DNA of 64,000 bases from Jatrophihabitantaceae bacterium (lineage in GTDB: Bacteria > Actinomycetota > Actinomycetes > Mycobacteriales > Jatrophihabitantaceae), in NCBI GenBank assembly GCA_036502575.1, contig DASXYL010000040.1, positions 47,283 through 111,282 on the forward strand, in the 5' to 3' direction. The position numbers and the translations under genes were made by a program. The notes below the pieces were generated by a model. It did no database searches. It saw only the letters and a list, made by a program, of their open reading frames with translations, and had not been told where the DNA came from. Shown piece after piece: positions 3,231 through 58,267 of this stretch (position 1 is the stretch's first letter; each line of letters opens with the position of its first letter).

Positions 3231-3282
3231 GCGCGCGGGCCGGGCTCTTCGCGCGAGCGCTCATCGCCTCGTGGTTGCGAGG
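3231..3282 (+). repeat. Intergenic repeat, module M3 copy (26-nt invariant core at 3242-3267)
   Basis: The core gggctcttcgcgcgagcgctcatcgc is identical at 26271-26296, 54818-54843 and 58336-58361. This copy lies between convergent genes. Confidence 0.85.
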
Positions 3283-5087: not shown

Positions 5088-5789
5088 GTGCCCGCTCGGT
5101 CCTCGCTCGCCGCCGGGCTGCTCATCGGCACAGCACTGGACGCGCTCGTGCCTGATCCGGGCCGCGGTCACCCGGTGGCGATCTTCGGCGCGGCCCGCCA
5201 GCAGGTGACCCATCTCGTCGGCCGTGACCCGGCCGCACTCGACGCGGACGGCGTCGCGCGGGCGGCGGTCGAATCGGTCGCCGAGAACACCTGCGACGCG
5301 ATCGTCGCGCCGCTGTTCTGGGGCGCGGTCGCCGGCGTCCCCGGGTTGCTCGGCTACCGGGCGATCAACACGCTCGACGCGATGGTCGGACACCGTACCC
5401 CTCGGTATGGGAACTTCGGCTGGGCGTCCGCCCGGCTGGACGATCTCGCCAACCTCGTCCCGGCGCGGCTCACCGCGGGGCTCGTCGCGCTGGCGAGCGG
5501 GCGCGCCCGGCGAACCCTCCGGGTCGCGGTTCGCGATGGCCATCGGCACCCGAGCCCGAACTCCGGTTACGCCGAGGCGGCCTACGCGGGAGCGTTGGGG
5601 TTGCGGCTCGGCGGCCGCAGCGTCTACGCGAATAGGGTCGAACACCGCCCGGAGCTGGGCGACGGGACGCTGCCGGGCCGGCAGGACATCCCGCGCGCCA
5701 CCCGCCTGTGCGCCGCCGTGACGATCGCCGCGGCCGTCACGGCGGCGCCGATCGCTCGGGGGCGCGGCCGACAAGGCCTGCGTTGCTAG
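5088..5789 (+). CDS. cbiB: CobD/CbiB adenosylcobinamide-phosphate synthase homolog with an in-frame internal deletion (233 aa)
   Basis: Has the N-terminal DPGRGHPVAIFG motif and the C-terminal two thirds (VGRDP...ESVAENTCDAIVAPLFW...YRAINTLDAMVGH...ARLDDLANLVPARL...HPSPNSGYAEAA). The roughly 80-residue segment normally between HPV..G and GRD is missing. Confidence 0.75.
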   Translation: MPARSSLAAGLLIGTALDALVPDPGRGHPVAIFGAARQQVTHLVGRDPAALDADGVARAAVESVAENTCDAIVAPLFWGAVAGVPGLLGYRAINTLDAMVGHRTPRYGNFGWASARLDDLANLVPARLTAGLVALASGRARRTLRVAVRDGHRHPSPNSGYAEAAYAGALGLRLGGRSVYANRVEHRPELGDGTLPGRQDIPRATRLCAAVTIAAAVTAAPIARGRGRQGLRC

Positions 5790-6005
5790 GGTGACGGGGT
5801 CCCAGGAGCCATCCCGGGATGGCCCAGGTGCAGCGAAGACCGGTGAGAGCCCGGCGCTGTCCCGCAACGGTACTGCTCCCGGAACCGGGGGCGAGCCCGG
5901 ACGCCTGCCCTGCGCCAGCGCAACCAGTCCTCGGAGGAAGGGCGGTTCGTTCGGCGCCTCCGGTGTCGAAGCGGGCGCACTTCGTCCTCCGCGACACGAT
6001 GGAGG
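5790..6005 (+). promoter_or_regulatory. Cobalamin (B12) riboswitch with an SD-sequestering expression platform
   Basis: Conserved core gaagaccggtgagagcccggcgctgtcccgcaacggta (5836-5873). B12-box-like gagcccggacgcctgcc (5892-5908). cgtcctcc (5983-5990) can pair with ggaggatg (6001-6008), which covers the RBS and start of the downstream transporter gene. Confidence 0.8.
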
Positions 6006-6011
6006 ATGAGC

Positions 6012-6980
6012 ATGTTCACCCACTCGCGACAGGCCCGCGCGGCCCTGGTCGCATCAGTCGCAGCACTCTCGGCCGTGGCCGCGTGCAGCAGCTCCAGTAG
6101 CCCGGCGCCGAGCTCCGCACCCGGATCAGGCACGACGGCGCCGGCCAGCGCCGCCCACTTCCCGGTCACGGTGCACGCCGCCAACGGCAACGTCACCATC
6201 GCCGGCAAACCCACCGCGATCGTCTCGCTCTCGCCGACCGCGACCGAGATGCTGTACGCGATCGGGGCCGGAGCCCAGGTCAAGGCGGTTGACAAGGACT
6301 CCGACTATCCGGCGGGCACGCCGCGCACCACTCTGAATGCCGTGGTGCTCAACGCCGAGGCGGTGGCGAAATACCAGCCGGACCTCGTCGTGGCGGCCGG
6401 ACTCGCGCCCGCACAGGCGCAGCAGCTCGCCAAGCTGAACGTCAAGGTGCTCGACGAGCCGGCCGCGACCGATGTCTCGCAGTCCTACGAACAGCTCACC
6501 CAGCTCGGTGACGCCACGGGGCACCCGGACGGCGCGGCGGCGGTGATCGCGACCATGAAGCAGAAGATCGCGGCGATCGTCACGACGGCGTCGAAGCGGG
6601 CCGCCACGTACTACTACGAGCTCGACCAGACGTATTACTCGGTGACGTCGACAACCTTCGTCGGACGGGTGTTGCGGATGCTCGGGCTGACCAGCATCGC
6701 CGACGCCGCGAAGGGGGCGGCCGCGAGCGGGGGCTACCCGCAGCTGTCCGCCGAATTCATCCTCAAGGCCAACCCAGACTACGTCTTCCTCGCCGACACC
6801 CGCTGCTGCAAGCAGTCGCTCACGACGGTGGGCAAACGTCCGGGCTGGTCGGCGCTGTCGTCAGTGCGCGGGGGCCGCGTCATCTCCATCGACGACTCGA
6901 TCGCCTCCCGGTGGGGGCCGCGCATCGTCGACCTGCTGAGCACGGTTGCCGCGGCCCTCCAGCAGCATCCGGTGACGTGA
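6012..6980 (+). CDS. ABC transporter substrate-binding lipoprotein, BtuF/iron-siderophore type (Peripla_BP_2)
   Basis: Lipobox LSAVAACSS. IVSLSPTATEMLYAIGAG..VKAVD is typical of the family. The ORF track starts at 6006. The ATG at 6012 is better spaced from GGAGGA (6001-6006). Confidence 0.85.
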   Translation: MFTHSRQARAALVASVAALSAVAACSSSSSPAPSSAPGSGTTAPASAAHFPVTVHAANGNVTIAGKPTAIVSLSPTATEMLYAIGAGAQVKAVDKDSDYPAGTPRTTLNAVVLNAEAVAKYQPDLVVAAGLAPAQAQQLAKLNVKVLDEPAATDVSQSYEQLTQLGDATGHPDGAAAVIATMKQKIAAIVTTASKRAATYYYELDQTYYSVTSTTFVGRVLRMLGLTSIADAAKGAAASGGYPQLSAEFILKANPDYVFLADTRCCKQSLTTVGKRPGWSALSSVRGGRVISIDDSIASRWGPRIVDLLSTVAAALQQHPVT

Positions 6981-8074
6981 GCGCCGAGCCGGCCGCCACT
7001 GACGGAGAGCGCGGTGCTGTGCTGCCCGGGGTCGACCGGGCGCTCGATCGTCCGCATCCGGTCCGTCGGCCACTGACCGTTTCCGCCGTTGTGCTGGTCG
7101 GGGCGATGCTGCTGGCTACCGCGGTGGGGCCGGTGAACATCAGCGTGGGCGACGTGGTCGGCACGATCTTGGCCCACGTTTCCTTCCTGGACTTCCACAC
7201 CGCGACTCCCCCGGTCGACCAGGCGATCGTGTGGCAACTGCGGTTGCCCCGAGTCGTGCTGGCCGCACTGGTCGGGGCGATGCTCGCCGCCGGCGGCACC
7301 TCCTACCAGGGCGTGCTGCGCAACTCGCTGGCCGACCCGTTCCTGCTCGGCGTAGCCGCCGGCGCCGGGCTGGGCGCCACCGTGGCCATCGTCACCGGAC
7401 ACGGCGGCGGCATCGTCCTCCCCGCATCGGCGTTCGTCGGAGCGGTGCTCGCCGTGGGGCTGACGTACCTGGTCGCGACGGCCGGGGGCGGGCCGGCGAG
7501 CGGCTACGCGATCCTGCTCGCCGGGGTGGCCATCGCGGCGATGCTCACCGCCGTGCAGACCTACCTGCAGCAGCGGCACACCGAGGAGATCCGCCAGATC
7601 TACAACTGGATCCTCGGCAGCTTCTCGGTCGCCTCGTGGTCGGACGTGCGACTCGTCCTGCCCTACGTCGCGGTCAGCGCCGTCGTGCTGCTCGCTCACC
7701 GCCGCGTCCTAGACGTATTGCGGGTCGGCGGCGAGGAAGCCGGTGCGCTCGGCATTCACCCGGAACGCAGCCGGCTGATCATCGTGGCCGCCGCCACGCT
7801 GGGGACCGCCGCGGCCGTGTCGGTGAGCGGGCTGATCGGGTTCGTGGGGATCCTCGTCCCGCACGCGGTCCGGCTGGCCGCCAGCGCCAGCTACCGCGTC
7901 GTGCTTCCGGTGTCCATGGTGTGCGGGGCGGCGTTCCTGGTGCTCGCCGATCTGGTCGCGCGCACGATCCAGGCGCCGACCGAGCTGCCGGTCGGCGTCG
8001 TCACCGCGGTGACCGGCGCGCCGTTCTTCCTGCTCGTGCTGCGCTCACGACGCACCCGGCACGGCGTTCTCTGA
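6977..8074 (+). CDS. FecCD/BtuC-family ABC permease
   Basis: Multi-TM protein with RLPRVVLAALVGAMLAAGGTSYQGVLRN.LADPFLLGV and the C-terminal ELPVGVVTAVTGAPFFL motif. GTG start at 6977 overlaps the upstream TGA (GTGA). Confidence 0.85.
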   Translation: MSAEPAATDGERGAVLPGVDRALDRPHPVRRPLTVSAVVLVGAMLLATAVGPVNISVGDVVGTILAHVSFLDFHTATPPVDQAIVWQLRLPRVVLAALVGAMLAAGGTSYQGVLRNSLADPFLLGVAAGAGLGATVAIVTGHGGGIVLPASAFVGAVLAVGLTYLVATAGGGPASGYAILLAGVAIAAMLTAVQTYLQQRHTEEIRQIYNWILGSFSVASWSDVRLVLPYVAVSAVVLLAHRRVLDVLRVGGEEAGALGIHPERSRLIIVAAATLGTAAAVSVSGLIGFVGILVPHAVRLAASASYRVVLPVSMVCGAAFLVLADLVARTIQAPTELPVGVVTAVTGAPFFLLVLRSRRTRHGVL

Positions 8075-8859
8075 TGCTGAGCCTCGAGCGAGTCACCGTG
8101 CGCTACGGGGCGTCCGTCGCCGTGGATGCCGTGAGCGAGTCAGCCGCCGCCGGCGAGTGGGTCGGCGTCATCGGGGCCAACGGCGCCGGGAAGTCCAGCC
8201 TGCTGCGGGCGGTGGCCCACCTGGTGCCGCACGAGGGCGTCGTGCGAATCGGCCGCGAGACGATGGGCCGGCTCTCCCCTCGGCGCCGTGCTCGGCTCGT
8301 CGCGTACGTGCCGCAGCAACCGGAGCTGCCGGCCGGGATGTCCGTGCTCGACTACACCCTGCTCGGCCGCACCCCGCACATCGGCTACTTCGGCGTCGAG
8401 TCGATGCACGATCGCGAGCGCTGCGCCGAGGTGCTCGACCGGATCGGCCTCGCCGATCTCACCGACCGATACCTGTCCACCCTCTCCGGCGGTGAGGTCC
8501 AGCGCGTGGTGTTGGCGCGGGCCCTGGCTCAGGAGGCGCCCGTTCTGCTGCTCGACGAGCCGACGAGTGCACTGGATCTGGGGCGGCGGGTCGACGCGCT
8601 CGAACTCGTCGACGAGCTGCGCCGCGAGCGGGACCTCACCGTGCTGAGCGCGATGCACGACCTGACGCTGGCCGCCCAGTTCGCCGACCGACTCGTGCTC
8701 CTCTCGGACGGCCGCGTCATCGCGTCCGGGCCGCCGGCCGACGTCCTGGACGAGAAGGTGCTCTCGGCCTGCTTCGGCGGCCGGGTCCGGGTGCTCACCG
8801 ACGACGACGGGCAACTACTCGTCGTGCCCCAGCGCTCGCGGAGGCGGATCGGATGCTGA
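8074..8859 (+). CDS. ABC transporter ATP-binding protein (BtuD/FecE type)
   Basis: Walker A GANGAGKSSLL, signature LSGGEVQRV, Walker B LLLDEPTSALD. ATG at 8074 overlaps the permease stop. Confidence 0.9.
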   Translation: MLSLERVTVRYGASVAVDAVSESAAAGEWVGVIGANGAGKSSLLRAVAHLVPHEGVVRIGRETMGRLSPRRRARLVAYVPQQPELPAGMSVLDYTLLGRTPHIGYFGVESMHDRERCAEVLDRIGLADLTDRYLSTLSGGEVQRVVLARALAQEAPVLLLDEPTSALDLGRRVDALELVDELRRERDLTVLSAMHDLTLAAQFADRLVLLSDGRVIASGPPADVLDEKVLSACFGGRVRVLTDDDGQLLVVPQRSRRRIGC

Positions 8860-9194
8860 TCAGCAGCCGGATCGAGGACGGGCGCCCGCTGTCCATGCTG
8901 GTGTGGCGGTTCGCCGAGCCGATGACGGTCGCGTCGACCGCGGCGTGCGGCGGCGGGCTGGGCGAGCGCGACTGGATCATCAACGCCCAGGTCGGGCACG
9001 ACTACCGGCGCCGCGACCAGCAGCGGCACGGCGCCGAGTTGGCCGCGGCAGCGACCGTGGACGGGGCCGGCGTCGTGATGTTCACCGCCGTCGACGTTCG
9101 CGAGGTGCGGTCCGGAGAGGACGGCGGGGTGCGGGTGGATGCGACCGTCGGGCTGGCCCGGGCCGTCCACTACGCCGTGTCGGCGGGAACATGA
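8853..9194 (+). pseudogene. CbiZ (adenosylcobinamide amidohydrolase) remnant, 113 codons, probably internally deleted
   Basis: LVWRF..P..VASTA.CGGGLG...W.INAQV...GVVMFTAVDV..V....GVRVDATVGL resembles the N-terminal half of CbiZ, then runs directly into ARAVHYAVSAGT-stop. This is about half the length I recall for the family. Confidence 0.5.
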
Positions 9195-9373
9195 CCCTCG
9201 ACCTCGGCCACCACGGTGATGTGGATGTCGCCCCCGGGCTGGTGGACCTCGCGCTCAACGTCCGGCCGGGCACACCGCCCGCCTGGCTGGCCGACGCGCA
9301 CTGGCTCCGGGTCGCGGTGCGCGATACCCCGACATCTACCGCCTTCGTGGAGGCTCTACATGACATTGCTTGA
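9191..9373 (+). pseudogene. CobC/CobD-type threonine-phosphate decarboxylase (aminotransferase) remnant, 60 codons
   Basis: MTLDLGHHGDVDVAPGLVDLALNVRPGTPPAWL matches the N-terminus of the family. HWLRVAVRD...FVEALHDIA matches its C-terminus. The whole PLP-binding core is absent. ATGA overlap upstream and 14-nt overlap with cobT downstream. Confidence 0.6.
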
Positions 9374-10415
9374 GGACACGATCAGCGCCATCAGCCCGCT
9401 CGACGCCGCCGCGGTCGCGGCGGCCCGCGCCCGGCAGGACAGCCTGACCAAGCCCCGCGGTGCGCTCGGTGCGTTGGAGGACGTCTCGGTGCAGCTGGCC
9501 GGGCTGGCCGGGGTTTGCCCGCCGCCGCTGCCGACGCCGGCGGCGGTTGTGGTGTTCGCCGGCGACCACGGGGTGCACGCGCAGGGCGTGACACCGTGGC
9601 CGCAGGAGGTCACCGCGCAGATGGTCGCGAACTTCCTCGCCGGCGGCGCGGTGATCAACGCGCTGGCCGCGCAGTCCGACGCCGAGGTCCTCGTCGTGGA
9701 CGTCGGGGTCGCGGCGGACCTGGACGCCGTTCCGGGCCTGCTGGTCCGCAAGGTGGCGCCCGGCACGCGGGACATGACCGGCGAGCCGGCGATGAGCCGG
9801 GCCGAGGCCCAGGCCGCGATCGAGGTCGGCATCGTGATCGCCCGCGATCTGGTGGCCGCCGGCACGCGGTGCCTGCTCACCGGCGACATGGGTATCGCCA
9901 ACACCACCCCGGCGGCCGCGCTGATCGCCGCGTTCACCGGTGCGGCTCCGGCTGAGGTGACCGGGCGCGGCACCGGCGTCGACGACGCGACGCTCGCCCA
10001 CAAGATCGAGGTCGTGACGCAGGCGCTTGCCCTACACCGGCCCGAGCCCGGCGATCCTCTCGGCGCGCTTGCCGCCGTAGGTGGCTTCGAGCACGCGGCG
10101 CTCACCGGCTACCTCCTCGGCGCGGCCGCGGCCCGGGTTCCGGTCGTGCTGGACGGAGTGATCGCCGACGCCGCGGCCCTCGTCGCGCGGACGCTCGCGC
10201 CGGACAGCACGGCGGCGATGATCGCCGGACATCGCTCGGCCGAGCCCGGCGCGTCCGTGGCTCTGGCGGCGCTCGGGCTCGCGCCGCTGGTCGATCTCGA
10301 CCTGCGCCTGGGCGAGGGGTCCGGGGCGGTCCTCGCGCTGCCGATCGTGCAGGGCGCCGTCCGGGTGCTGCGCGACGTCGCGACCTTCGACTCGGCCGGC
10401 GTCACGGAAAAGTGA
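9360..10415 (+). CDS. cobT: Nicotinate-nucleotide--dimethylbenzimidazole phosphoribosyltransferase CobT
   Basis: 351 aa from the internal ATG. Motifs DSLTKPRGALGALE, VVVFAGDHGV, GDMGIANTT and LRLGEGSGAVLALPIV (catalytic Glu motif). Confidence 0.9.
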   Translation: MTLLEDTISAISPLDAAAVAAARARQDSLTKPRGALGALEDVSVQLAGLAGVCPPPLPTPAAVVVFAGDHGVHAQGVTPWPQEVTAQMVANFLAGGAVINALAAQSDAEVLVVDVGVAADLDAVPGLLVRKVAPGTRDMTGEPAMSRAEAQAAIEVGIVIARDLVAAGTRCLLTGDMGIANTTPAAALIAAFTGAAPAEVTGRGTGVDDATLAHKIEVVTQALALHRPEPGDPLGALAAVGGFEHAALTGYLLGAAAARVPVVLDGVIADAAALVARTLAPDSTAAMIAGHRSAEPGASVALAALGLAPLVDLDLRLGEGSGAVLALPIVQGAVRVLRDVATFDSAGVTEK

Positions 10416-10537
10416 GCCGCGCCCTGGTGCTGGGCGGTCGCCGCGCTGACGCGCTGGGCCTGCTCAACCAACGGCTCGCGGCCACTGCGGACTACGTGCA
10501 TCTGGTCGTGGCCGGGCTGCCGTTGCGGCTGACATGA
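10412..10537 (+). pseudogene. CobU/CobP (adenosylcobinamide kinase/guanylyltransferase) remnant, 41 codons
   Basis: Read directly from the sequence: VSRALVLGGRRADALGLLNQRLAATADYVHLVVAGLPLRLT-stop. ALVLGG is the start of the P-loop strand. LG..NQRLA...D.V.LVVAG is the family C-terminus. Bracketed by GTGA (cobT stop) and ATGA (cobS start). It is too short for the ORF track. Confidence 0.65.
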
Positions 10538-11289
10538 GGACGGCGCTCGCGCTCTTCACGATCGTGCCGGTGCGAGACGCCGCGGCACTGACCCGCGAGC
10601 GGGCGGTGGTCGCGCTGCGCTGGTTCCCATTGGTGGGGGCGGGGCTCGGTGCCGTCGCCGCGCTGCCGCTGGCCGCGGTACGCGCCTGGGCGCCGCACGC
10701 GACCCTGCTCGGCGCGGTGCTCGCGGTGGCGCTGCTCGCGCTGTGCAGCCGCGGCCTGCATCTGGACGGGCTGGCCGACACGGCCGACGGTCTGGCGTCG
10801 CGGGCCCCCGCCGAGCGAGCGCTGCAGATCATGCGCCGCTCGGACATCGGCCCGTTCGGCGTGCTCGGGATCGTCCTGACCGTGCTGATCGACATCGCTG
10901 CCCTGGCCGCACTGGACGGTTCGTCCTGGCGTCCGGTCGCGGCGCTCGCGGTGGCGGCCGCGACCGGGCGCCTCGCCGTGTTGCACGCCGCGCACCCCCG
11001 GGTGCCGTCGGCGCGGACGTCGGGGTTCGGGGCGTACGTGGCCGGCTCGGTGGCCACTCCGGTGGCGGCGCTCGAGACCGTCGTCGTCCTCGGCGGCGCG
11101 GCGGGCTTGGCAGCAGCGGTGCACACCAGCGTGCTCGGATGGCTGGTCGCGTCGGCATCGGCACTGGTGGCAGTGGCCGGCGTCCGCTGGCACACGACGC
11201 GTCGCCTCGGCGGCGTGACCGGCGACGTGTTCGGCGCACTGGTCGAAATCGGCACCGCGCTCACCCTGACCGGCCTCGCCTTCTGCTGA
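10534..11289 (+). CDS. cobS: Adenosylcobinamide-GDP ribazoletransferase (cobalamin synthase) CobS
   Basis: 251 aa multi-TM protein. MRTALALFTIVPV, GLHLDGLADTADGL and IMRRSDIGPFGV are typical of CobS. Confidence 0.9.
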   Translation: MRTALALFTIVPVRDAAALTRERAVVALRWFPLVGAGLGAVAALPLAAVRAWAPHATLLGAVLAVALLALCSRGLHLDGLADTADGLASRAPAERALQIMRRSDIGPFGVLGIVLTVLIDIAALAALDGSSWRPVAALAVAAATGRLAVLHAAHPRVPSARTSGFGAYVAGSVATPVAALETVVVLGGAAGLAAAVHTSVLGWLVASASALVAVAGVRWHTTRRLGGVTGDVFGALVEIGTALTLTGLAFC

Positions 11290-11309
11290 CCTGCACCGCG
11301 CCGGGCAAG

Positions 11310-12317
11310 ATGAGCACCGTGACCGACATCGCGACCATCGCCGCCGAGGTGCCCTGGCCGGATCACGAGGCCGAGCAGGCCGCCCGCGAGCACGCCGGCA
11401 ACCTGGGCGAGCTGGACGGGCTGGCCGAGTGGCTGGCCGGCGCTCAGGGCAGTTACCCGCCGGCTGATCCCGAACGGGTGCGGGCGCTGGTCTTCGCTGC
11501 CGACCACGGCATCGCGGCGGCCGACGTGTCGACGGCGCCCCCGGACGCCACCCCCGGGTGGGTCGCCGACGTGAGCGGCGGCGCGACGGGGCTGAACGTC
11601 CTGGCCGAGCTGGCCGGAGCGACGGTGCGCGTGGTCGACGCCGGGGTCGGTCAGCCCAGCGGCCGGATCGATCGCGAGGACGCCTTGTCCGCGGACGAGG
11701 TCGAGCAGGCGATGCAGGCCGGCATCGACGTCGCCGATGACGAGATCGACGGCGGCACCGACCTGATCGTCGTGGGCGATCTGGGCGTTGGTGCGACGAC
11801 TATCGCCGCGGTGCTCGTCTCGGTGATCACGAACACCGAGCCGGTGAAGGTGGTGGGACGCGGCGGCGGTGACGGCATCGACGACGAAACGTGGATGCGC
11901 AAGACGACCGCCGTCCGCGACGCGCGGCTGCGTGCATGGGATGTCCGAGCAGCACCCGTCGATCTGCTGGCTACCGCCGGCGGCGCCGACATCGCGGCGA
12001 TGGTGGGCTTCCTGATCCGGGCGGCGGCCCGGCGCACACCGGTGTTGTTGGACGGCGTCGTGGCGACCTCGGCCGCCCTCGTCGTGCAGGAGCTGCAGCC
12101 GCGCTGCGTGCGCTGGTGGCGAGCCGGGCAGCGGACGAGCGAACCCGCCCAGGCGGTGGCGCTGCGCCGGCTCGGCCTGGAGCCGATCCTGGACCTCGGC
12201 GTCCAGGCCGGCGACGGCTCCGGCGCCCTACTGGCGGTGCCGATCCTGCGAGCAGCCGCCCGCACGTCTGGGTCACGGGCGAAGAACTCAAGCGAAGAGC
12301 CCGCCGGCCGCGACTGA
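11310..12317 (+). CDS. CobT-family paralog (DMB phosphoribosyltransferase-like), divergent active site
   Basis: 335 aa from the internal ATG. ALVFAADHGI, GDLGVGATT and AGDGSGALLAVPIL are collinear with CobT, but Asp replaces the catalytic-motif Glu and the N-terminal TKP.G.LG.LE motif is degenerate. Confidence 0.7.
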   Translation: MSTVTDIATIAAEVPWPDHEAEQAAREHAGNLGELDGLAEWLAGAQGSYPPADPERVRALVFAADHGIAAADVSTAPPDATPGWVADVSGGATGLNVLAELAGATVRVVDAGVGQPSGRIDREDALSADEVEQAMQAGIDVADDEIDGGTDLIVVGDLGVGATTIAAVLVSVITNTEPVKVVGRGGGDGIDDETWMRKTTAVRDARLRAWDVRAAPVDLLATAGGADIAAMVGFLIRAAARRTPVLLDGVVATSAALVVQELQPRCVRWWRAGQRTSEPAQAVALRRLGLEPILDLGVQAGDGSGALLAVPILRAAARTSGSRAKNSSEEPAGRD

Positions 12318-12443
12318 TCTACCCGCGGCCAAGCAGGGTGCCGGACTAAGCCGCGGCGCAGGAGCGTGAACCGGCAGTCTCCGGCCACCTTTGCTCTGCT
12401 TACCAATACGCATCAGCTGGACTGAAACGTGGCTCCCGCTAGC

Positions 12444-12491
12444 GATCTTGATATCGATCGCGGCGTATGACCCACTCCGGGTATCAAGATC
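12444..12491. repeat. Perfect 10-bp-stem hairpin (gatcttgata / tatcaagatc), possibly related to module M4
   Basis: Inverted repeat read directly, with a 28-nt loop. It lies in a lower-GC spacer between convergent cobT paralog and gcvT. Confidence 0.5.
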
Positions 12492-12546
12492 CGTCCCGGC
12501 TGGGTGAGTCGGCTTAACCGTCCGGCGACTTGAGGCTCGACGGCAC

Positions 12547-13668
12547 CTACCTGACGTGCGACGCCACGAACGGCGGCTTGACGATCCGGACCGGGATCTG
12601 CCGGCCCCGCACGTCCACGACGACCTCGTCACCCTCGGCAATGCCGGTGCCGCCGGTGCCGCCGGTGCCGAGCAGCGCCAGCCCGATGCCCTTCTTCAGC
12701 GTGGGCGAGAACGTCCCGCTCGTGACCTCGCCGATCTGCTTGCCGTCGGCGTCGAGCACGCTCATATGCGCCCGCGGGATGCCCCGGTCCAGCGCCTCCA
12801 GCCCCCACAGCGTCCGCACCGGCCCGGCCGCCTTCTCGGCGAGCAGCGCCACGCGCCCCCAGAAGGCGTCCTTGCTCCAGCCGACGGCCCAGCCGGCCCG
12901 CGCCTGCAGCGGCGAGATGTCCAGCGAGAGGTCCTGCCCGTGCAGCGGATAGCCCATCTCGGTGCGCAGGGTGTCGCGGGCGCCGAGCCCGGCCGGCATG
13001 CCGCCCAGCTCGCGAATGACGTCGACCAGCGCGTCCCACAACAGCGCGGTGTCGTTCCAGGCCGGGATCAGTTCGTAGCCGTGCTCGCCGGTGTAACCGG
13101 TGCGGCAGATCCGCACCGCGCGCCCGTCGTAGCCGGCCTCGACATAGGCCATGTAGGGCAGCTCGGACGGCAGGCCGAGCCGGCTCAGCACCTCGGCCGA
13201 GCGCGGCCCCTGCACGGCCAGCACGCCGAAGTCCTGGTGCTGGCCGGTGACCGTGATGTCGTCGGGGGCGCCCGCCTCGAGCCGGCGCACCACCTCGGCG
13301 GTGTTCGCGGCGTTCGGCACCAGGAACACCTCGTCGTCACTGACCAGGTAGGCGATCAGGTCGTCGACCACGCCGCCGGACTGGTCGCAGCACAGCGTGT
13401 ACTGCGCCTTGCCGGGCTCGATGCGGCCGAGGTCGTTCGACAGGCAGGCGTTGACGAAGTCCCGCGCGCCGTTGCCTCGAACGGTGGCCTTGCCGAGATG
13501 CGACACGTCGAACACGCCGACCGCCTCACGAACCGCGGCGTGCTCCTTGAGAACCCCGCCGCCGGTCGCGGCGTACTCGATCGGCATCTCCCATCCTCCG
13601 AAGTCGGCGAGCTTGGCGCCGAGGTCGACATGTCGATCGTGCAACGGGGATCGCAGGAGGTCACTCAC
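12547..13668 (-). CDS. gcvT: Glycine cleavage system aminomethyltransferase GcvT
   Basis: [58 protein letters not shown] at 13668 (VSDLL...) gives a canonical N-terminus. The ORF track extension to 13785 would overlap pepA. Confidence 0.85.
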
Positions 13669-13751
13669 GGCGTGCACGCTACAGAGATCGGTTGGTGCCA
13701 ATGGCGCCGCAGGCCACCTGCCGGGCCGACCGGACCGCATAAGCTGCCCGG

Positions 13752-15230
13752 ATGCCTTCGGTCTCTCTCGTCGACGCAACGTCACTGGACAAGGACGCCG
13801 CCGTCGTCGTCGGCGTCCACGCCGGCCCGGACGGCCCGGTGCCCGAAGCCGGCGCCGCTCCGATCGACCAGGCGCTGGGCGGTCGGCTGTCCGCGGCGCT
13901 CACGGCACTGGGCGCGACGGGCCAGGCCGACGAGGTTGTGAAGATCGCCACGCTCGGGTTGGCGCCGTTCGGGGTAGTGATCGCCACCGGGCTGGGCGCG
14001 GCCAACGGCGCGCTGGACCCCGAGCAGGTGCGCCGCGCGGTCGGTGCTGCGCTGCGCACGCTCGGCTCGAACGCCCGGGCGCACATCGCGATCGGCGACG
14101 CCGCCACGGCCGGGGCCGCCGCCGAAGGCGCCCTGCTCGGGGCGTACGCCTACACGCGGTACAAGTCGCAAGCCAAGCCGCCGACGCTGCGTCGAGTGAC
14201 GATCGGGGTCAGCGACTCCCGCGATCGGGGGGCCCGAGCCGCGCTTCGCCGGGCCCAGGTCATCGCCGACGCGGTCACGTTCACCCGCGACCTCGTCAAC
14301 GTCCCGCCCAACGACCTGTACCCGGACGCACTCGCCACGCGAGGCGCCGAAGCCGGACGCGAGGCCGGCCTCGAGGTCGAGGTGCTCGATGAGAAGGCGC
14401 TTCGACGGCAGGGCTTCGGCGGCATCCTCGGCGTCGGCTCGGGGTCCTCGCGGCCACCACGCCTGGTCCGGCTGCGCTACCTGCCGGCCCGTCCGCGCGG
14501 CCGGGTCGCCCTCGTCGGCAAGGGCATCACGTTCGACTCCGGCGGGCTGAACCTCAAGCCGGGCAGCGCCCTGTCCGGGATGAAGTCCGACATGGGGGGT
14601 GCGGCTGCCGTGCTGTCCGCGGTGATCGCGGCGGCCAAGCTGAAGCTGCCGATCGAGGTGGTCGCCACGCTGCCCATCGCCGAGAACATGATCTCCGGGT
14701 CGTCGTACCGGCCGTCGGACGTCCTCACCCTGCGCGGCGGCAAGACGCTCGAGATCACCGACACCGACGCCGAGGGCCGGGTCATCCTGGCCGACGCGAT
14801 CGTGCGGGCCGGCGAGGACTCCCCCGACTACCTGCTCGAGATCTCGACGCTCACCGGCGGCCAGGTGGTGGCCCTCGGCACGCGGGTGATCGGCGCGATG
14901 GGCGAGGCCGGCTTTCGCGACCGCGTCGTCGCGGCCGGCAACGCCGCCGGAGAAGCGTTGTGGGGTATGCCGCTGCCCGACGAGCTACGAGCCGGCCTGG
15001 ATTCGCAGGTGGCCGACATCGCCAACCTGCCGAGCGACCGATGGGGCTCGATGCTCGTCGGCGGGCGCTTCCTGGCCGAGTTCGTGCCCGAGGGGGTGCC
15101 CTGGGTGCACCTCGACATCGCCGGGCCGTCGTGGAACCCGAGCGCCGCGCACGACTACACCCCCAAGGGCGGCACCGGCGCCGGCGCGCGCACCCTCATC
15201 GCCGTGCTCGAGGACATCGTCGCGAACTAG
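13752..15230 (+). CDS. pepA: Leucyl aminopeptidase (M17)
   Basis: 492 aa with [16 protein letters not shown] and NTDAEGR-type motif ([15 protein letters not shown]). Confidence 0.9.
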
Positions 15231-15583
15231 ACGGACGGGCCGGACATGCCGGGCGGCCCGATCTCGCCGTTGGCCTTGCGCTTGGCCGTCCAGTCGCGCA
15301 TCCGTTGCGGATAGCCGACGACGCCGACGTCGTAGAGCGGCACTCCGTGCTTGCGCGCGAAGTCGCGGGCCCCCTGGACGCCGGCCACCCGACGACGCGT
15401 CCACTCGCCGGTCGCGGCCACCAGGACGACGGTGGTTTCGGTCACGGTGGTGCGCGGCTCGATGTAGGCCTCGACACCCGGTCGCGACTTGACGAACTGC
15501 ACCAGGTGCGCCACATCGGTCGATGACGCACCCCGCAGCGTGCCGGCCCGCTTGTTCTTCCGGCGACTCAGCAGCCCCACCAC
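15227..15583 (-). CDS. Conserved hypothetical protein (118 aa)
   Basis: ORF with sensible composition and a 4-nt convergent overlap with the pepA end. No family recognised. Confidence 0.45.
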   Translation of the reverse strand: MVGLLSRRKNKRAGTLRGASSTDVAHLVQFVKSRPGVEAYIEPRTTVTETTVVLVAATGEWTRRRVAGVQGARDFARKHGVPLYDVGVVGYPQRMRDWTAKRKANGEIGPPGMSGPSV

Positions 15584-15713
15584 TCCCCCCTTCGTTAGCC
15601 CTGACGATACCGGCGACCCCTAGGTCGTGACCCAGCCAGCGCCGAGTGTCGCCCGCTGTGTGGTGGGTGCCAAGATGGGAGTAGGCACAGTCCACAAGGG
15701 TCAGGAGAACAAC

Positions 15714-17111
<1,398 letters not shown>

Positions 17112-17160
17112 CTCCAGATGACGCCCGACCGCAGAAGTTGACTCGAAGGAGCCTTGGACC

Positions 17161-18816
17161 ATGTCGGTCTCTGTGACCATGCCGCGCCTCGGTGAGAGCG
17201 TCACCGAGGGAACCGTCACTCGATGGTTGAAGAACGAGGGCGACCACGTCGACGCCGACGAGCCGCTACTCGAGGTCTCTACCGACAAGGTCGACACCGA
17301 GGTCCCCTCGCCGGCTTCCGGCACGCTCACGTCGATCAAGGTGCAAGAGGACGAGACGGTCGAGATCGGCGTCGAGCTGGCCGTGATCGGTGACGACGGG
17401 GCGAGCGCGGCTCCCGCTGAGGCAGCCCCGGCCCAACAGGCGGCTCCTCCGCCGCCCGCGCCGGCCGAGCAGGCCGCGCCCCCTGCGCCCGCGCCGGCCG
17501 AGCAAGCTGCGCCGGCGCAGCAGGAGCAACCGGCACCTGCAGCCGAGCCCGCCGCGCCCGCTGCGCCAGCCCAGGAGCCCCAGCCAGCACAACAGGCCCA
17601 GGCGCCCCAGCCGGCACCGGCCGCCCAGCCGGCCCCCGCGGACGAAGCCGGAGCCGGCGACGAGGCGGGCGACGAGGCGGGCGACGATGACGACCTGGCC
17701 GGTACCTACGTCACGCCCCTGGTGCGCAAGCTGGCCAGCGAGCACGGCGTGGACCTCACCGCCATCGCGGGCACCGGCGTCGGTGGCCGCATCCGCAAGT
17801 CCGACGTCCTGGCCGCGGCCGAACGAAACGCCGCCGTCGCCGAAGAACCGGTTTCCGCTCCGGCCGCGGTAGCGCCGGCACCGGCTACCGCGCCAGCGAC
17901 AACGCTCACCCCCGAGCCATTCACGCCGCCGGCGCCCACCCCGGTGCCGAGCGCAGTCCCAGATCGGGCGCCGAACGGCGCGCCGAGCGTGGCAGCGGCC
18001 ACCGCAACGGTCACAGCGCCGACCACCGCACCGGCCACCGCGCCGGCCGTCCAAGAAAGCGCCCCGGCGCCCATAGCTGCGGCGGCGACAACACGTGGTC
18101 ACACCGAGAAGATGAGCCGGCTGCGGCAGACGATCGCCGCGCGCATGGTCGAGTCGCTGCAGGTCTCGGCCCAGCTCACGACCGTGATCGAGGTGGACGT
18201 CACCAAGATCGCGCGGCTGCGCGACCGGGCCAAGGCGTCGTTCGAGGCCCGCGAAGGCGTCAAACTCTCGTTCCTGCCGTTCTTCGCGGTAGCCGCCGTC
18301 GAGGCGCTCAAGGCCCATCCTGCGGTCAACTCCTCGATCGACACCGAGGCCAAGACGATCACCTACCACGACGCCGAGCACCTGGGCATCGCGGTCGACA
18401 CCGAGCGGGGCCTGCTCGCACCCGTGATTCACAACGCCGGCGACCTCAACCTGTCCGGCCTGGCTCGCAGCATCTCCGATCTGGCCGAGCGCACCCGCAC
18501 CAATCGGATCAGCCCGGACGAGCTGTCAGGCGGCACATTCACCCTGACCAACACCGGCAGCCGGGGGGCCCTGTTCGACACGCCGATCCTCAACCAGCCG
18601 CAGGTCGGCATCCTGGGCACCGGCGCGGTCGTCAAGCGGCCGGTCGTGGTGAGCGACCCCGAGCTGGGCGAGACGATCGCGATCCGCTCGATGGTCTACC
18701 TGGCGCTGACCTACGACCACCGCATCGTCGACGGCGCGGACGCCGCCCGGTTCCTCGGCACGGTCAAGGACCGCCTGCAGGCGGGCAACTTCGAGCGAGC
18801 ACTCGGGCTGCTGTAG
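17161..18816 (+). CDS. sucB: Dihydrolipoamide acyltransferase E2 (SucB/DlaT)
   Basis: Lipoyl domain [15 protein letters not shown], Pro/Ala linker, E3-binding PLVRKLA..HGVDL, catalytic [11 protein letters not shown]. Confidence 0.9.
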
Positions 18817-19778: not shown

Positions 19779-19905
19779 CGAGCGAGCGGACGCCGGTTTC
19801 AGGACGGTGTCGTGACGCATTCATAGGTGCGCCCGGACGCCGGGAAGTAGCCGAGCCGCCGACCGCCGACCTACTCTCACCGTGCACACACAGTGAGGAG
19901 CGCCG

Positions 19906-22900
19906 GTGGAGTTTCGCGTGCTCGGACCGCTCGAGGTCGTCAAGGACGGCCGGCCGGTGCCGATCGCCGCGGCGAAGCAGCGCGCGCTGCTCGCCACGTT
20001 GCTGCTGCGCGCGAACCAGCCCACGTCGGTCGACTGCATCGCGGAACGCCTGTGGCGAGACGATGCGCCGACTCACCCGCGCCGGGCCGTCCATACCCAC
20101 GTGACCCGGCTGCGCGACACGCTGGGTGAGCATCGCGACCTGATCCGGACCCAACCCGACGGTTACCTGATCGAGCTCGACGGCGCCCAGCTCGACCTGA
20201 CCGTCTTCGGGGCACTGCTCGACCGGGCCATGGCGGGCGAGAACCCGGAGGACTCCGTCGCCCTGCTGGATCAGGCCGACCGGCTGTGGCGGGGGGCGCC
20301 GCTGTCCAACGTCGAGTCCGACGTGCTGCACGCGCACGACGTCGCACCGCTGATCGAGCGCTGGCTGCTGGCCAAGGAGCGTCGCCTGGACGCCGGCCTA
20401 CGCCTCGGCGAGCAGCACGAACTGGTGCCCCAGCTGGTCGAACTGACCACGGCGTATCCGTGGCACGAGCGCTTCTGGGTGCAGCTGATGCTCGCCCTGG
20501 ATCGGTGCGGCCGCACCGGGGACGCGCTGCTGGCCTTCGAGGCGGCGCGCGGGCGGCTGGTGCACGAGTTCGGAATCGATCCGGGCGAACAGCTGCGGAC
20601 CACGCACGCCGCCCTGCAGGCCGGTGACCACCACGGCGCCGACCGACCGGCCGCGCGGCCGCGGCAGTTGCCGCCTGACGTGCGGGGCTTCACCGGCCGG
20701 ACGGCGGAACTCGCGCAGCTCGACGCGTATCTGAAGGGGGCCCCCGCGGTCTGCGTCCTCACCGGGACGGCCGGCGTGGGCAAGACCGCGCTGGCCGTGC
20801 ACTGGGCGCACCGGGTGGCGTCACGCTTCCCCGACGGCCAGCTCTACCTGAACCTGCGCGGCTACGACCCGGGCCGGCCGATGAGTTCAGACCACGCGCT
20901 GGAGTTGCTGCTGCGCGCCGTCGGCGTCTCCGGACGCGATGTGCCCGTGGGCGAGGACGCGCGGGGCGCGCTGTTGCGGTCCCGGCTGGTCGACCGCGAG
21001 GTGCTGATCGTCCTGGACAACGCGAGCAACCCGGACCAGATCCGGCCCCTGCTGCCGGGTACGCCGTCGTGCCGCATCGTGGTGACCAGCCGCGACGATC
21101 TCGCCGGGCTGGTGGCCCGCGACGGCGCCGTCCGGGTCCGTGTCGACCGGCTCAGCCACGGCGACGCGACCGGCGTGCTGCGCTTCCTGCTGCCGCCCGG
21201 TGACCACGACGACGCCGCGCTCGATCAGCTGGTGCAGCTGTGCGACCGCCTGCCACTTGCCCTGCGCATCGCCGCCGATCGCGTCGCGACGCGCGTCGAG
21301 GCCTCCCCGTCCGAGGCGGTCGCCGAGCTCACCGCGCAGCCCCGCCTGGACGCGCTCGCCACGGAGGGAGACGCGCACAGCGCCCTGGACGTCGTGCTGT
21401 CGTGGTCCTACCGATCGGTGTCCCGGCCGGCGGCGCGACTGTTCCGGCTGCTCGGGCTCGTGCCCGGCGGCAGCTGGGACGCCCCCTGCGCTGCCGCGCT
21501 CGCCGGCTCCACCCTCGCCGAGGCCCGCCGGCACCTCGCGGCCCTGGCCGCAGCCCACCTGATCGAGGTTCGACACGACGGCCGGTACGTCATGCACGAC
21601 CTGCTGCGCGCATACGCCGCCGACCGCGCGCAGGCGCACGAGACCCGGGCCGGGCGCCGAGCAGCGACCGGACGCCTGCTCGACTACTACGTCCAGGCCA
21701 GTTCCCTGGCGATGGACGCCGCGTTCGCCTTCGAGCGACATCGCCGCCCGGCGGTTCCGGCGGCCGTATCGGTGCACCCGCCGTGCGATGCCAAGGCGGC
21801 ACTCGCCTGGCTCGACGGGCAGCGATCAGCGCTCGTTGCGGCGACCCTCCAAGCCGCCGACCAGGGTCGGCCGGACCACGCGATCACCCTGGCGGCGACG
21901 CTGCACCGCTACCTGTTCGTGGGCGCCCACCACACGGATCTGCTCGCGGTGCACGGCCAGGCGCTGCGGTGCGCACGAACCGACGCCGAACGCGGGCTGG
22001 CGCTGCACAACCTGGGCCGTACCCATCTGCGCCTGGGACGCTTCGAGGACGCGAACGACGAGCTGCACCGCGCCCTCGCGCTCGTCCGGCAGGCCGACGA
22101 TCACGGCGCCGAGGCCGACACGGTGCAGAGCATCGGCCTGATCCATCTGGAACGTGGCCAATGGGACGCCGCGTTCGACTCCTTCCAACGGGCGCTCGCG
22201 CTCGCCCGCGCGGCCGGTGACCGCAGCCTGGAGGCCCGGGCGCTGGGCAGCCTGGGCGAGGTCACCCAGTACCAGGGGCGCTACCACGTCGCTCTCGGCC
22301 ACGTGCGCGAGGCGTTGGCGTTGTTCCGCGCGATCGGCGATCGGGCCACCGAGGCCGACGCGCTGATCGGCACCGGCAGCCTGTACGGACGCCTCGGCGA
22401 CGACAGCCGGGCCTTCGACCATCTGCAGCAGGCCGTTCGCGTCGCCCGCGACATCGGCGACCGGCACCGCGAGGCGTCGGCGCTCGAGCACCTCGGCGAC
22501 GCGAGCCGGCGCCAGGGCCGCAACGCCGTTGCCTACGACCAGTACCACCAGGCCATGAGGCTGTTCCGCGAGATCGGCGACATCGCCCGGGAGGTCAGTT
22601 GCCTGATCGGCCTCGGATCACTCGACGCGTGCCGCGGCCGTACCGCCGAAGCCCTCGAGCGGCACGAGCGGGCGCTGGTCATCGCGCAGCAGATCGGTCA
22701 TCGGCGCGGCCAGGTGCGCGCCCATAACGCGCTCGGCGAGTCGCTGCGACTCGCCGGTCGGCCGGCGCAGGCCGGGGCCAGCCACGAGTCGGCGCTGGCG
22801 TTGGCCGGCGAGCTCGGCGACCGGTATGAGCAGGCCCGAGCGCTGGCCGGCCTCGGCGCTGCTCGGCAGGATCTGGGCGACGACGACGGTGCGCAGGAGA

Positions 22901-22998
22901 GCCGAACGCGCGCCCTGCGTGAGTTCGCGAGCCTCGGCGTGCGCGAGGCGGACGAGCTGCGCGCCGAGATCGCCCTGCCGTGTGCCGCCGGGGCCTGA
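19906..22998 (+). CDS. AfsR-like regulator: SARP (OmpR-type wHTH + BTAD) - NB-ARC ATPase - TPR
   Basis: 1030 aa. (V)EFRVLGPLEV start, BTAD WRG.PL, P-loop GTAGVGKTALAVHWAH, long C-terminal TPR array. Confidence 0.85.
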   Translation: MEFRVLGPLEVVKDGRPVPIAAAKQRALLATLLLRANQPTSVDCIAERLWRDDAPTHPRRAVHTHVTRLRDTLGEHRDLIRTQPDGYLIELDGAQLDLTVFGALLDRAMAGENPEDSVALLDQADRLWRGAPLSNVESDVLHAHDVAPLIERWLLAKERRLDAGLRLGEQHELVPQLVELTTAYPWHERFWVQLMLALDRCGRTGDALLAFEAARGRLVHEFGIDPGEQLRTTHAALQAGDHHGADRPAARPRQLPPDVRGFTGRTAELAQLDAYLKGAPAVCVLTGTAGVGKTALAVHWAHRVASRFPDGQLYLNLRGYDPGRPMSSDHALELLLRAVGVSGRDVPVGEDARGALLRSRLVDREVLIVLDNASNPDQIRPLLPGTPSCRIVVTSRDDLAGLVARDGAVRVRVDRLSHGDATGVLRFLLPPGDHDDAALDQLVQLCDRLPLALRIAADRVATRVEASPSEAVAELTAQPRLDALATEGDAHSALDVVLSWSYRSVSRPAARLFRLLGLVPGGSWDAPCAAALAGSTLAEARRHLAALAAAHLIEVRHDGRYVMHDLLRAYAADRAQAHETRAGRRAATGRLLDYYVQASSLAMDAAFAFERHRRPAVPAAVSVHPPCDAKAALAWLDGQRSALVAATLQAADQGRPDHAITLAATLHRYLFVGAHHTDLLAVHGQALRCARTDAERGLALHNLGRTHLRLGRFEDANDELHRALALVRQADDHGAEADTVQSIGLIHLERGQWDAAFDSFQRALALARAAGDRSLEARALGSLGEVTQYQGRYHVALGHVREALALFRAIGDRATEADALIGTGSLYGRLGDDSRAFDHLQQAVRVARDIGDRHREASALEHLGDASRRQGRNAVAYDQYHQAMRLFREIGDIAREVSCLIGLGSLDACRGRTAEALERHERALVIAQQIGHRRGQVRAHNALGESLRLAGRPAQAGASHESALALAGELGDRYEQARALAGLGAARQDLGDDDGAQESRTRALREFASLGVREADELRAEIALPCAAGA

Positions 22999-23087
22999 TC
23001 GATTTCAACTTCGTCTCGGTGTCCCCGTGCATTCATCCCTGTGCCTACGCTGTCACCGACCTGTGAGCGAGGAGCCTGAACGGATCC

Positions 23088-54807: not shown

Positions 54808-54866
54808 CGCGCGGGCCGGGCTCTTCGCGCGAGCGCTCATCGCCTGGTGGTTACGTTCTTGTGGGT
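54808..54866 (+). repeat. Intergenic repeat, module M3 copy (core 54818-54843)
   Basis: Identical 26-nt core. It lies between convergent panB and npdG and is preceded by the hairpin ccggcccg...cgggccgg. Confidence 0.85.
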
Positions 54867-57845: not shown

Positions 57846-58267
57846 GGCGACGGACGAGTCGACCTGTAAGCCGGGTCCTGTACCTGACGCTTGCGCGCCC
57901 GGTGGCGGCCATCCATCTCGGCCTGCCGTCGCCGACAGGTTCTAGCGATCTACCCGCAGGCTCGGGCGGGCCGCCCTCGATCGCCTACGCGAATCCCCTG
58001 GTTTCCCAAGGGATCCTTCTTGACCTTGCTCCGGGTGGGGTTTACCGAGCCGCTCCGATCGCTCGGAACGCTGGTGGTCTCTTACACCGCCGTTTCACCC
58101 TTACCGGCCATTGGCGAGCCAACGCCGGCGGTCTGTTTTCTGTGGCACTTTCCCGCGGGTCGCCCCGGGTTGCCGTTAACAACCACCCTGCCCTGTGGAG
58201 CCCGGACTTTCCTCGGCGAACCTGTCTGACAGGTTCGACGCGACCGCCCGGTCGGCTCGTCCGCCGC
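57846..58267 (-). ncRNA. rnpB: RNase P RNA (bacterial type A)
   Basis: The minus strand contains GAGGAAAGTCCGGGCT (58201-58216), CACAGAAAACAGACCGCC, GTAAGGGTGAAACGG, GGTAAACCCCACCCGGAGCAAGGTCAA and ACAGGACCCGGCTTACAGGTCGACTCGTCC. The 5' and 3' ends pair as P1. Confidence 0.88.

Follow-up and report, generated by a model that had tools for sequence, protein, structure and literature searches.

In a 64,000-nucleotide (nt) stretch of a soil-metagenome contig (DASXYL010000040.1; this whole stretch is called the window) from a Jatrophihabitantaceae bacterium, an uncultured lineage of soil metagenome-assembled genomes (MAGs), we examined an operon for cobinamide salvage and nucleotide-loop assembly in which four genes, cbiB, cbiZ, cobC, and cobU, each carry one internal deletion. 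All four deletions are multiples of 3 nt, and each is confined to a single gene, with the gene termini and the stop/start overlaps between neighboring genes kept. CbiZ, CobC/CobD, CbiB, and CobU together make adenosylcobinamide-GDP. The deletions strike precisely these four genes and leave the interleaved btuFCD, cobT, and cobS genes untouched. Our favored reading, which we hold at a probability of about 0.5, is that this salvage operon has been caught as its decay begins, in one lineage, and that the in-frame pattern would be the joint product of mutational bias and a filter on translational coupling.

Deletion sizes were measured against full-length orthologs in relatives with the same gene order. 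The initial annotation of the window, made from the sequence and its open reading frames (ORFs), had read four short ORFs as collapsed forms of CbiB, CbiZ, CobC, and CobU. Profile matches and full-length relatives bore this out, with one in-frame internal deletion in each, and alignment to Pfam and NCBIfam profiles mapped the part of each family that is still covered. In cbiB, 219 nt (73 codons) are gone. Codons 1 to 35 run into AARQQVTHLVG... at a junction near 5190 to 5196 (HPVAIFG/AARQQ) with 4 nt of homology, or 9 of 13 positions when imperfect matches are counted, in phase; the first 17 nt of the relative L082 are the intact-type right flank of this deletion. The CbiB remnant lacks profile positions ~35 to 112, which amounts to 73 codons relative to L002, the usual full length of this membrane protein being ~300 to 320 amino acids (aa). 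It scored 252 bits with Pfam PF03186 (above threshold) and 173.9 with TIGR00380 (cut-off, 165.9) but fell below the cut-off of NF002276 (305.8 versus 381). In cbiZ, 267 nt (89 codons) are missing between 9155 and 9156 (DATVGL/ARAVH), at a 5-nt microhomology, GGCTG (9151 to 9155), with 8 of 9 positions matching in phase. The gene keeps 101 N-terminal and 12 C-terminal codons, and its product reached 59.5 bits with PF01955 (threshold, 27), but the C-terminal half is absent and the full domain of ~190 positions is not covered.

The largest loss is in cobC, where 816 nt (272 codons) are gone between 9292 and 9293 (PPAWLA/DAHW) with 2 nt (GA) of microhomology. Left are 34 N-terminal and 26 C-terminal codons, the latter including the GGAGG Shine-Dalgarno sequence of cobT. 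This remnant matched positions 1 to 32 of NF005915 at 48.6 bits (cut-off, 360; E = 7e-13) and had zero Pfam matches; the 332-aa ortholog in L082 scored 460.7 bits against the same cut-off. The pyridoxal phosphate (PLP)-lysine region (SLTK in L082) is missing, and the product does not qualify as an aminotransferase of class I/II (~330 aa; TIGR01140, PF00155). In cobU, 369 nt (123 codons) are gone at a junction within 10439 to 10447 (LVLGG-RRA-DALGLLNQ). There is no microhomology (0 nt), and 3 nt (GCT) agree with neither flank. The P-loop GGSRSGKS of L082 reads GGRRAD in the window, so that SGKS is lost, and the scores (26.7 bits with PF02283, threshold 27; 25.7 with NF004469, cut-off 161) identify a remnant only; a full-length member would have ~165 to 180 aa and an N-terminal P-loop (G-x4-GKS/T). 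With the P-loop, the SLTK region, and the C-terminal half of CbiZ gone, we regard the CbiZ, CobC, and CobU stubs as no longer enzymes, and the CbiB stub may have lost its activity too. That both termini are kept and the catalytic middle lost, as initially described, holds for the remnants generally, but cbiZ retains its whole N-terminal half.

Short direct repeats, which the initial annotation had named as something to look for at the junctions, were found at cbiZ (5 nt) and cbiB (4 nt) but hardly at cobC (2 nt) and not at cobU (0 nt). Comparison of the four junction sequences revealed no shared recombination motif, and no cloning scar or restriction site was seen at any of them. Automated annotation missed some of the losses: the JGI and NCBI records label the CbiB and CbiZ stubs as working enzymes, and the JGI record additionally labels the 41-aa CobU stub a cobinamide kinase. 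Such mislabeling can make automated reconstructions of B12 pathways or cross-feeding wrongly score the organism as a cobinamide salvager.

Eight relatives with matching gene order were recovered by a genome scan and a metagenome scan. Nucleotide identity to the window is 92 to 94% for L082 (Ga0137415_10002391; window positions 5177 to 17714), about 92 to 94% for L083, L090, and L091, ~84% for L084 and L085, ~83% for L002, and ~78 to 82% for L001. Wherever a relative covers the site, the gene is full length: CbiB (Pfam positions 1 to 281 of 282; full length in L002), CbiZ with 202 aa (intact in L082, L083, L084, L085, L002, and L001), CobC with 332 aa, and CobU with 164 aa (intact in L082, L090, L091, L002, and L001). 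The comparison with close relatives thus places the full-length and the collapsed state in the same syntenic operon, and because these relatives carry full-length genes, internal in-frame deletions are established. We rejected insertions in the relatives, which match complete Pfam and NCBIfam profiles. A diverged allele imported by recombination was also rejected, since identity to L082 is uniform (92 to 94%) over the operon and its flanks; an apparent 85.9% segment at 9151 to 9333 was an alignment overrunning the junction, and the proper segment is 90.7% identical. As a separate observation, the btuF ortholog of L002 (5404 to 6471) covers only positions 1 to 144 of 235 of Peripla_BP_2 within one ORF, which may be an assembly frameshift or an independent lesion.

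The operon runs in the order cbiB, B12 riboswitch, btuF-btuC-btuD-cbiZ-cobC-cobT-cobU-cobS-cobT2 (Table 1). As initially reported, a stop/start overlap is present at every junction from btuF to cobS. These seven consecutive overlaps are of the NUGA or URRUG type and are also present in L082: GTGA at 6977 to 6980 (btuF/btuC), TGATG at 8072 to 8076 (btuC/btuD), ATGCTGA at 8853 to 8859 (btuD/cbiZ), ATGA at 9191 to 9194 (cbiZ/cobC), 14 nt at 9360 to 9373 (cobC/cobT), GTGA at 10412 to 10415 (cobT/cobU), and ATGA at 10534 to 10537 (cobU/cobS). The ORF calls and all seven overlaps are also present in the JGI annotation, which has the same gene calls except that it starts btuF at 6012. The cbiB gene lies outside this chain, with a gap of 216 nt to btuF that holds the riboswitch; its inclusion among the collapsed genes stands as far as the in-frame deletion goes but not as a link in the chain of overlaps. 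The riboswitch scored slightly below the Rfam gathering threshold of 31.5 bits (E = 1.4e-5, full model 1 to 189) and shares 8 nt with the stop end of cbiB. It lies directly 5' of btuF, and the orthologous sites scored 32.2 bits in L082 (above threshold) and 31.1 bits in L002, so a genuine cobalamin riboswitch is very likely. Downstream, cobT scored 427.9 with TIGR03160 (cut-off, 319.3) and has its own Shine-Dalgarno sequence, and cobT2, which begins 20 nt past the end of cobS, has a counterpart in L082 and L001.

Table 1. Features of the salvage operon, in window coordinates
Feature	Coordinates	Strand	Profile match and notes
cbiB remnant, 233 aa	5088..5789	+	Pfam CobD_Cbib 113-281/282 plus N-terminal 35 aa
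Cobalamin riboswitch aptamer (very likely), between cbiB and btuF	5782..5926	+	RF00174, 30.7 bits
btuF-like periplasmic binding protein, intact	6006..6980	+	Pfam Peripla_BP_2 1-233/235; GGAGG upstream
btuC-like FecCD permease, intact	6977..8074	+	GTGA overlap with btuF stop; no Shine-Dalgarno
btuD-like ABC ATPase, intact	8074..8859	+	TGATG overlap with btuC; no Shine-Dalgarno
cbiZ remnant, 113 aa	8853..9194	+	Pfam CbiZ 1-94/191
cobC remnant, 60 aa, Rv2231c-family PLP enzyme of aminopropanol arm	9191..9373	+	NF005915 1-32
cobT (nicotinate-nucleotide:dimethylbenzimidazole [DMB] phosphoribosyltransferase), intact	9360..10415	+	Pfam DBI_PRT 1-329/329, 432.8 bits
cobU remnant, 41 aa	10412..10537	+	Pfam CobU 136-168/168; bridges cobT stop (GTGA) and cobS start (ATGA)
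cobS (cobalamin-5'-phosphate synthase), intact	10534..11289	+	Pfam CobS 1-206/207; TIGR00317 110.4 versus cut-off 110
cobT2 (cobT paralog), intact	11310..12317	+	Pfam DBI_PRT; NF000996 318.2 versus cut-off 306

We polarized codon changes with L002 or L001 as the outgroup. On the window branch, the remnants gained 5 nonsynonymous and 13 synonymous changes in 388 codons, and the intact genes gained 26 and 87, respectively, in 1,856 codons. By our estimate, a branch that was neutral throughout would have given ~55 nonsynonymous changes in the stubs, and the stubs have been free of constraint for at most ~12% of the branch. With amino-acid changes not in excess in the remnants, these counts date the four deletions as very recent. 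These relative-rate counts led us to reject old remnants under relaxed selection. The 388 remnant codons were free of frameshifts, stop codons, and small indels. The stubs' protein clusters at 90% identity, drawn from ~15 billion proteins, contain this lineage only; all 120 of the nearest CobU clusters have a full-length protein (155 to 219 aa), and a metagenome scan for the collapsed state elsewhere returned intact relatives only. The remnants are therefore recent pseudogenes, with intact relatives, lost motifs, and a single affected lineage. They offer an unusually clean view of the earliest stage of pathway loss, in which a cobinamide salvager turns dependent on ready-made B12: four knock-outs, with no further damage visible yet.

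A further 5 kb aligned with L082 held no coding indel and two intergenic indels only. Because this adjoining 5 kb has no large coding indel, the deletions are specific to the salvage pathway. One intergenic difference is a lower-GC spacer of ~230 nt (12318 to 12546) where cobT2 and gcvT converge. The spacer of L082 is shorter by ~209 nt, and that of L001 is likewise far shorter. No Rfam match at E <= 1 turned up for the longer spacer, and there is no further copy in the window. The other is in L082 (11311 to 11533, corresponding to window ~15228), where ~222 extra nt lie between pepA and a convergent 118-aa ORF and end with GGGCTAGACGGACGG repeated in tandem. The corresponding two genes of the window share a 4-nt overlap. 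Large indels are a common event in neutral DNA of these lineages, as this ~222-nt insert near pepA shows.

We then asked how surprising it is that four of four deletions are in frame. Codon-phase bias was measured within genes, where third codon positions are ~90% G+C. Because third positions are GC-rich, direct repeats mostly share the same codon phase: the in-phase fraction was 0.53 for exact 5-mers, 0.585 for 6-mers, and 0.66 to 0.69 for imperfect 10- to 12-mers. A whole-operon estimate of 0.37 to 0.40 was discarded as misleading, since genes in different frames dilute the bias. In-phase microhomology is present at two junctions (cbiZ and cbiB) and at neither cobC nor cobU. The chance of four in-frame deletions is then ~0.03, or 0.09 if all four are counted as microhomology events, and the initial figure of 1 in 81 (0.012), which assumed one in three for each, was too strict. 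The design-like look of the operon is thus partly a by-product of codon-periodic composition. This calls for caution in other GC3-rich genomes (those with GC-rich third codon positions), where microhomology deletions fall in frame more than half the time and a one-in-three null overstates selection.

When deletions of these sizes were placed at random, all four stayed inside one gene each with a probability of ~0.03, four different genes were hit in 1.2% of cases, and exactly these four were hit with a probability of ~1.5e-5. This pattern tells us that the salvage/activation branch is no longer useful and is on its way out.

At the starts of btuC, btuD, cobU, cobS, and cobT2, no Shine-Dalgarno core is present within 25 nt. 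A GGAGG is present at cbiZ, cobT, and btuF, and cobC has a weak GGGA. With its overlaps and its downstream ORFs that have no Shine-Dalgarno sequence, the operon shows both sequence features that would be expected of termination-reinitiation coupling, and translation of cobS presumably starts with ribosomes that re-initiate on leaving the cobU remnant. In Mycobacterium tuberculosis, the NUGA overlap is the commonest gene junction, more than half of the ORFs downstream of it have no Shine-Dalgarno sequence, and less Rho-dependent termination accompanies tight overlaps (bioRxiv 10.1101/2022.06.01.494293).

Frameshifting deletions were simulated in the intact L082 genes. Most of them overran the next start by 100 to 1000 nt or ended early. 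For cbiZ, both shifted frames either stopped early or ran on past the cobC start for 103 or 998 nt, and the hand-over at this gene is therefore kept by in-frame deletions only.

A related observation concerns the hand-over sites themselves. A second frame also ends there, at 9360 to 9363 and 10529 to 10537 in the window and at 5299 to 5302 and 6837 to 6845 in L082: one TGA lies within the ATGA of the cobT start, and another lies 2 nt before the cobS ATG (CTGACATGA). Two of three frames would thus terminate at the cobC/cobT and cobU/cobS junctions, as a fail-safe or by coincidence.

On the favored reading, four independent and very recent genomic deletions would have removed the catalytic cores of cbiB, cbiZ, cobC, and cobU. 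Two influences would then have shaped which deletions we see. One would be mutational: in GC3-rich genes with repeats in phase, slippage-type deletions should fall in frame more than half the time. The other would be a selective filter against deletions that derail a ribosome relay, that is, stop/start re-initiation and the protection from Rho that comes with it. The genes depending on such a relay would be the downstream genes with no Shine-Dalgarno sequence, above all along the path from cobT through the cobU remnant to cobS. The mini-ORFs themselves would be pseudogene stubs and at most passive conveyors of ribosomes. As neither cobS nor cobU has a Shine-Dalgarno sequence, the most plausible ribosome relay is the 41-codon remnant of cobU that links cobT to cobS. 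We infer a contribution from selection on coupling and also that ribosomes translate the remnants.

Several results weigh against this role for selection. In the simulations, one shifted frame of cobC met a stop within cobT's start ATGA 98% of the time, and one shifted frame of cobU did so 2 nt before the cobS ATG 61% of the time, so the native frame is not uniquely required. A model with the coupling filter gave four of four in frame with a probability of ~0.10 to 0.17, compared to 0.03 to 0.09 for mutation alone, a gain of only 3- to 5-fold. The cbiB gene was deleted in frame with no coupling partner downstream, only the 216-nt gap and the riboswitch. Since cobT has its own GGAGG, the cbiZ and cobC remnants are not obviously required as relays. 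Phase bias does not help at the cobC and cobU junctions (the latter with its 3 odd bases), which are unlike slippage. The stubs are known from a single lineage and have not diverged since they formed. Finally, CobS would have no substrate if the cell has no CobU, and with no second cobU, selection for a relay would have no beneficiary. Selection to keep ribosomes reading through to cobT and cobS, which the initial annotation had offered as an explanation, thus survives as plausible, especially for the cobU stub, though with modest confidence for a preserved relay.

The pathway consequence bears directly on this question. The initial annotation had noted a local paradox, and our survey upheld it: cobT, cobS, and cobT2 are intact by profile, the CobU core is missing, and tblastn and Pfam searches found no second cbiB, cbiZ, cobC, or cobU within the 64-kb window. 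With deletions this young, the intact state of cobT and cobS is no proof that either gene still functions or is needed. Should the genome hold another set of cobU and cbiB, then both cobT and cobS are required, and the coupling filter makes sense. Otherwise, the lineage has only just turned to importing B12, the next genes to decay will be cobT and cobS, and mutation bias plus luck accounts for the in-frame pattern.

The latter case is pure neutral decay, in which whole B12 taken up via BtuFCD makes salvage useless and nothing is selected. We regard this account as possible though doubtful. It accommodates the in-frame deletion of the uncoupled cbiB, the absence from the window of a second cobU, cbiB, or cobC, and an intact cobT and cobS that are uninformative so soon after the deletions. 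The large intergenic indels nearby relative to L082 (12263 to 12546 and 15228) also suit it, as such events are not rare. Codon-phase microhomology raises the chance of the in-frame pattern to 3 to 9%, but neutral decay still needs that coincidence, and at the two junctions with no such microhomology, the in-frame probability is just 1/3. It also leaves the confinement of every deletion to one gene as a ~0.03 outcome under random placement and must accept 388 remnant codons with zero frameshifts, nonsense codons, or small indels.

One catastrophic event, with several double-strand breaks in 6 kb (e.g., from desiccation or radiation) repaired together by end-joining or microhomology-mediated joining and survived by the product with its frames kept, would explain why four deletions arose within a time too short for extra substitutions and why all of them fall in 5.4 kb and none in 5 kb of neighboring genes. 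The 3 unmatched bases at the cobU junction and the 2 nt of homology at cobC are typical of end-joining. However, the cbiB and cbiZ junctions resemble slippage, simultaneity has no direct support, and hitting exactly four linked genes while sparing cobT and btuFCD (P of ~1.5e-5) points to function-guided, sequential loss. We consider a single event improbable.

The mini-proteins might instead be functional, as regulatory or scaffold peptides or a shortened CbiB, and be kept in frame for that reason. The lack of excess amino-acid change fits this idea. So do the profile scores, in which the CbiB remnant exceeds the cut-offs of Pfam and TIGR00380 and the CbiZ remnant exceeds that of Pfam. Recency accounts for the lack of change, however, and the 41-aa and 60-aa stubs, with no P-loop or PLP-lysine region, are too small for enzyme folds. 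No other lineage appears in the 90% clusters, the 120 nearest CobU clusters are all of normal length, and it is implausible that four enzymes gained such roles at once. We therefore judge function of the mini-proteins very improbable.

About equally remote is an artefact or minor variant, in which assembly errors, amplification chimeras, or a rare subpopulation produced the collapsed genes and the dominant genome would carry full-length ones. Over its first 20.4 kb, the window agrees at 100% identity with what is available of JGI contig Ga0376651_0000019 (sample 3300036773, 231.7 kb), which encodes the same remnant proteins. An NCBI third-party MAG of a Jatrophihabitantaceae bacterium (HEY3715006-HEY3715014, VGL39_108xx) has the same proteins, including the remnants, and a 935-nt Logan contig (run SRR11833234) spans the cbiZ and cobC junctions with 100% identity. 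All these assemblies probably derive from one sample, and a Logan contig of just 935 nt suggests graph branching nearby. Yet three assemblies by different software agree exactly, the rest of the 231-kb contig is collinear with relatives, and an artefact gives no reason for multiples of 3 or for striking only four linked genes. Assembly collapse, which the initial annotation had named as a possible refutation, was rejected, as the flanks share just 0 to 5 nt, far under any assembler word size (k-mer), and independent assemblies are identical. Engineered markerless deletions in a contaminating laboratory strain resemble the layout, which is that of textbook non-polar in-frame deletions, but the chance of this is negligible for an uncultured soil MAG lineage with irregular retained parts (9 to 198 codons), junctions with no scar or restriction site, and other soil metagenome contigs as its nearest relatives (92 to 94% identity).

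Formation of pseudogenes and remnants by deletional bias, once a pathway is dispensable, is an established concept. The window resembles it in that a coherent gene set loses its cores, the still-needed neighbors are intact, and the junctions have short or no microhomology. Typical young pseudogenes, in contrast, carry frameshifts, stops, and small indels, whereas the window has four large, clean, intragenic in-frame deletions only, and the start/stop overlaps of its operon are all untouched. The layout is also like that of laboratory non-polar deletions, which keep a few terminal codons, the frame, the downstream overlap, and the ribosome-binding region; a study of the Streptomyces tun cluster reportedly used such in-frame deletions to avoid polar effects in coupled operons. 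It differs in that it occurs in a natural, uncultured organism, with no scars, irregular lengths, and junctions of the microhomology or end-joining type. Our literature search for natural in-frame pseudogenization in coupled operons found laboratory deletion studies only.

Cobinamide salvage and remodeling operons, with btuFCD alongside cbiZ, cbiB, cobU, cobT, and cobS, are known from archaea and Rhodobacter. L082, L002, and L001 hold exactly this set behind a cobalamin riboswitch. The window differs in having lost all steps to adenosylcobinamide-GDP, while transport and the last two loop-assembly enzymes remain. The closest parallel for a relay role is the B12-riboswitch ppe2-cobQ-cobU operon of M. 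tuberculosis, in which a short upstream ORF (uPPE2) delivers ribosomes to PPE2. Downstream expression there needs translation of the short ORF and an AUGA overlap, and shifting the short ORF's stop beyond the next start abolishes expression (PMC11260477). Like uPPE2, the stubs in the window are short ORFs with an AUGA/GUGA overlap in a B12-riboswitch operon of the Mycobacteriales, and cobS has no Shine-Dalgarno sequence. Unlike uPPE2, they are fresh enzyme remnants and not dedicated leaders, their relay role is putative, and alternative frames would partly serve.

Operon decay is a known process. The window adds a new example, and one well suited as a natural test case for gene loss under the constraint of polarity. 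The question it poses, whether polarity and coupling limit which loss-of-function mutations persist, is familiar from laboratory routine but poorly documented in evolution. We suggest, tentatively and as something that may well prove wrong, that operon polarity shapes gene death in general. In tightly coupled operons, removing or frameshifting a dispensable gene would silence downstream genes that have no Shine-Dalgarno sequence, and the dispensable gene would instead shrink to an in-frame stub that stays on as a passive relay. If so, many "hypothetical" mini-ORFs in high-GC actinobacterial operons would be relay fossils, with the cobU stub as the clearest example.

The flanking genes include nadA, a Band-7 protein, gcvT, pepA, lpd, sucB, lipA, glnA, glnE, glnA2, nadE, panB, and RNase P RNA, a neighborhood that we take to be the conserved core region holding cobT-cobS in Mycobacterium (Rv2207-Rv2225). 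The class A RNase P RNA (57851 to 58259, minus strand, 280.6 bits) and a single tRNA-Thr(GGT) (29209 to 29285, plus strand) are ordinary housekeeping features. Two tandem paralogous regulators of ~1030 aa each (19897 to 22998 and 23067 to 26171) carry Trans_reg_C, BTAD, an NTPase domain (AAA_16 or NB-ARC), and TPR repeats in an AfsR/SARP-like architecture. A 45-nt GC-rich repeat (cgcgcgggccgggctcttcgcgcgagcgctcatcgcctSgtggtt), which contains a CGCGCG...CGCGCG palindrome, occurs at 3232 to 3276 and 54808 to 54852 with 98% identity. Both sites are intergenic, one 3' of a DUF3043 gene and the other 3' of panB, and the repeat may be terminator-like or similar to repetitive extragenic palindromic (REP) elements.

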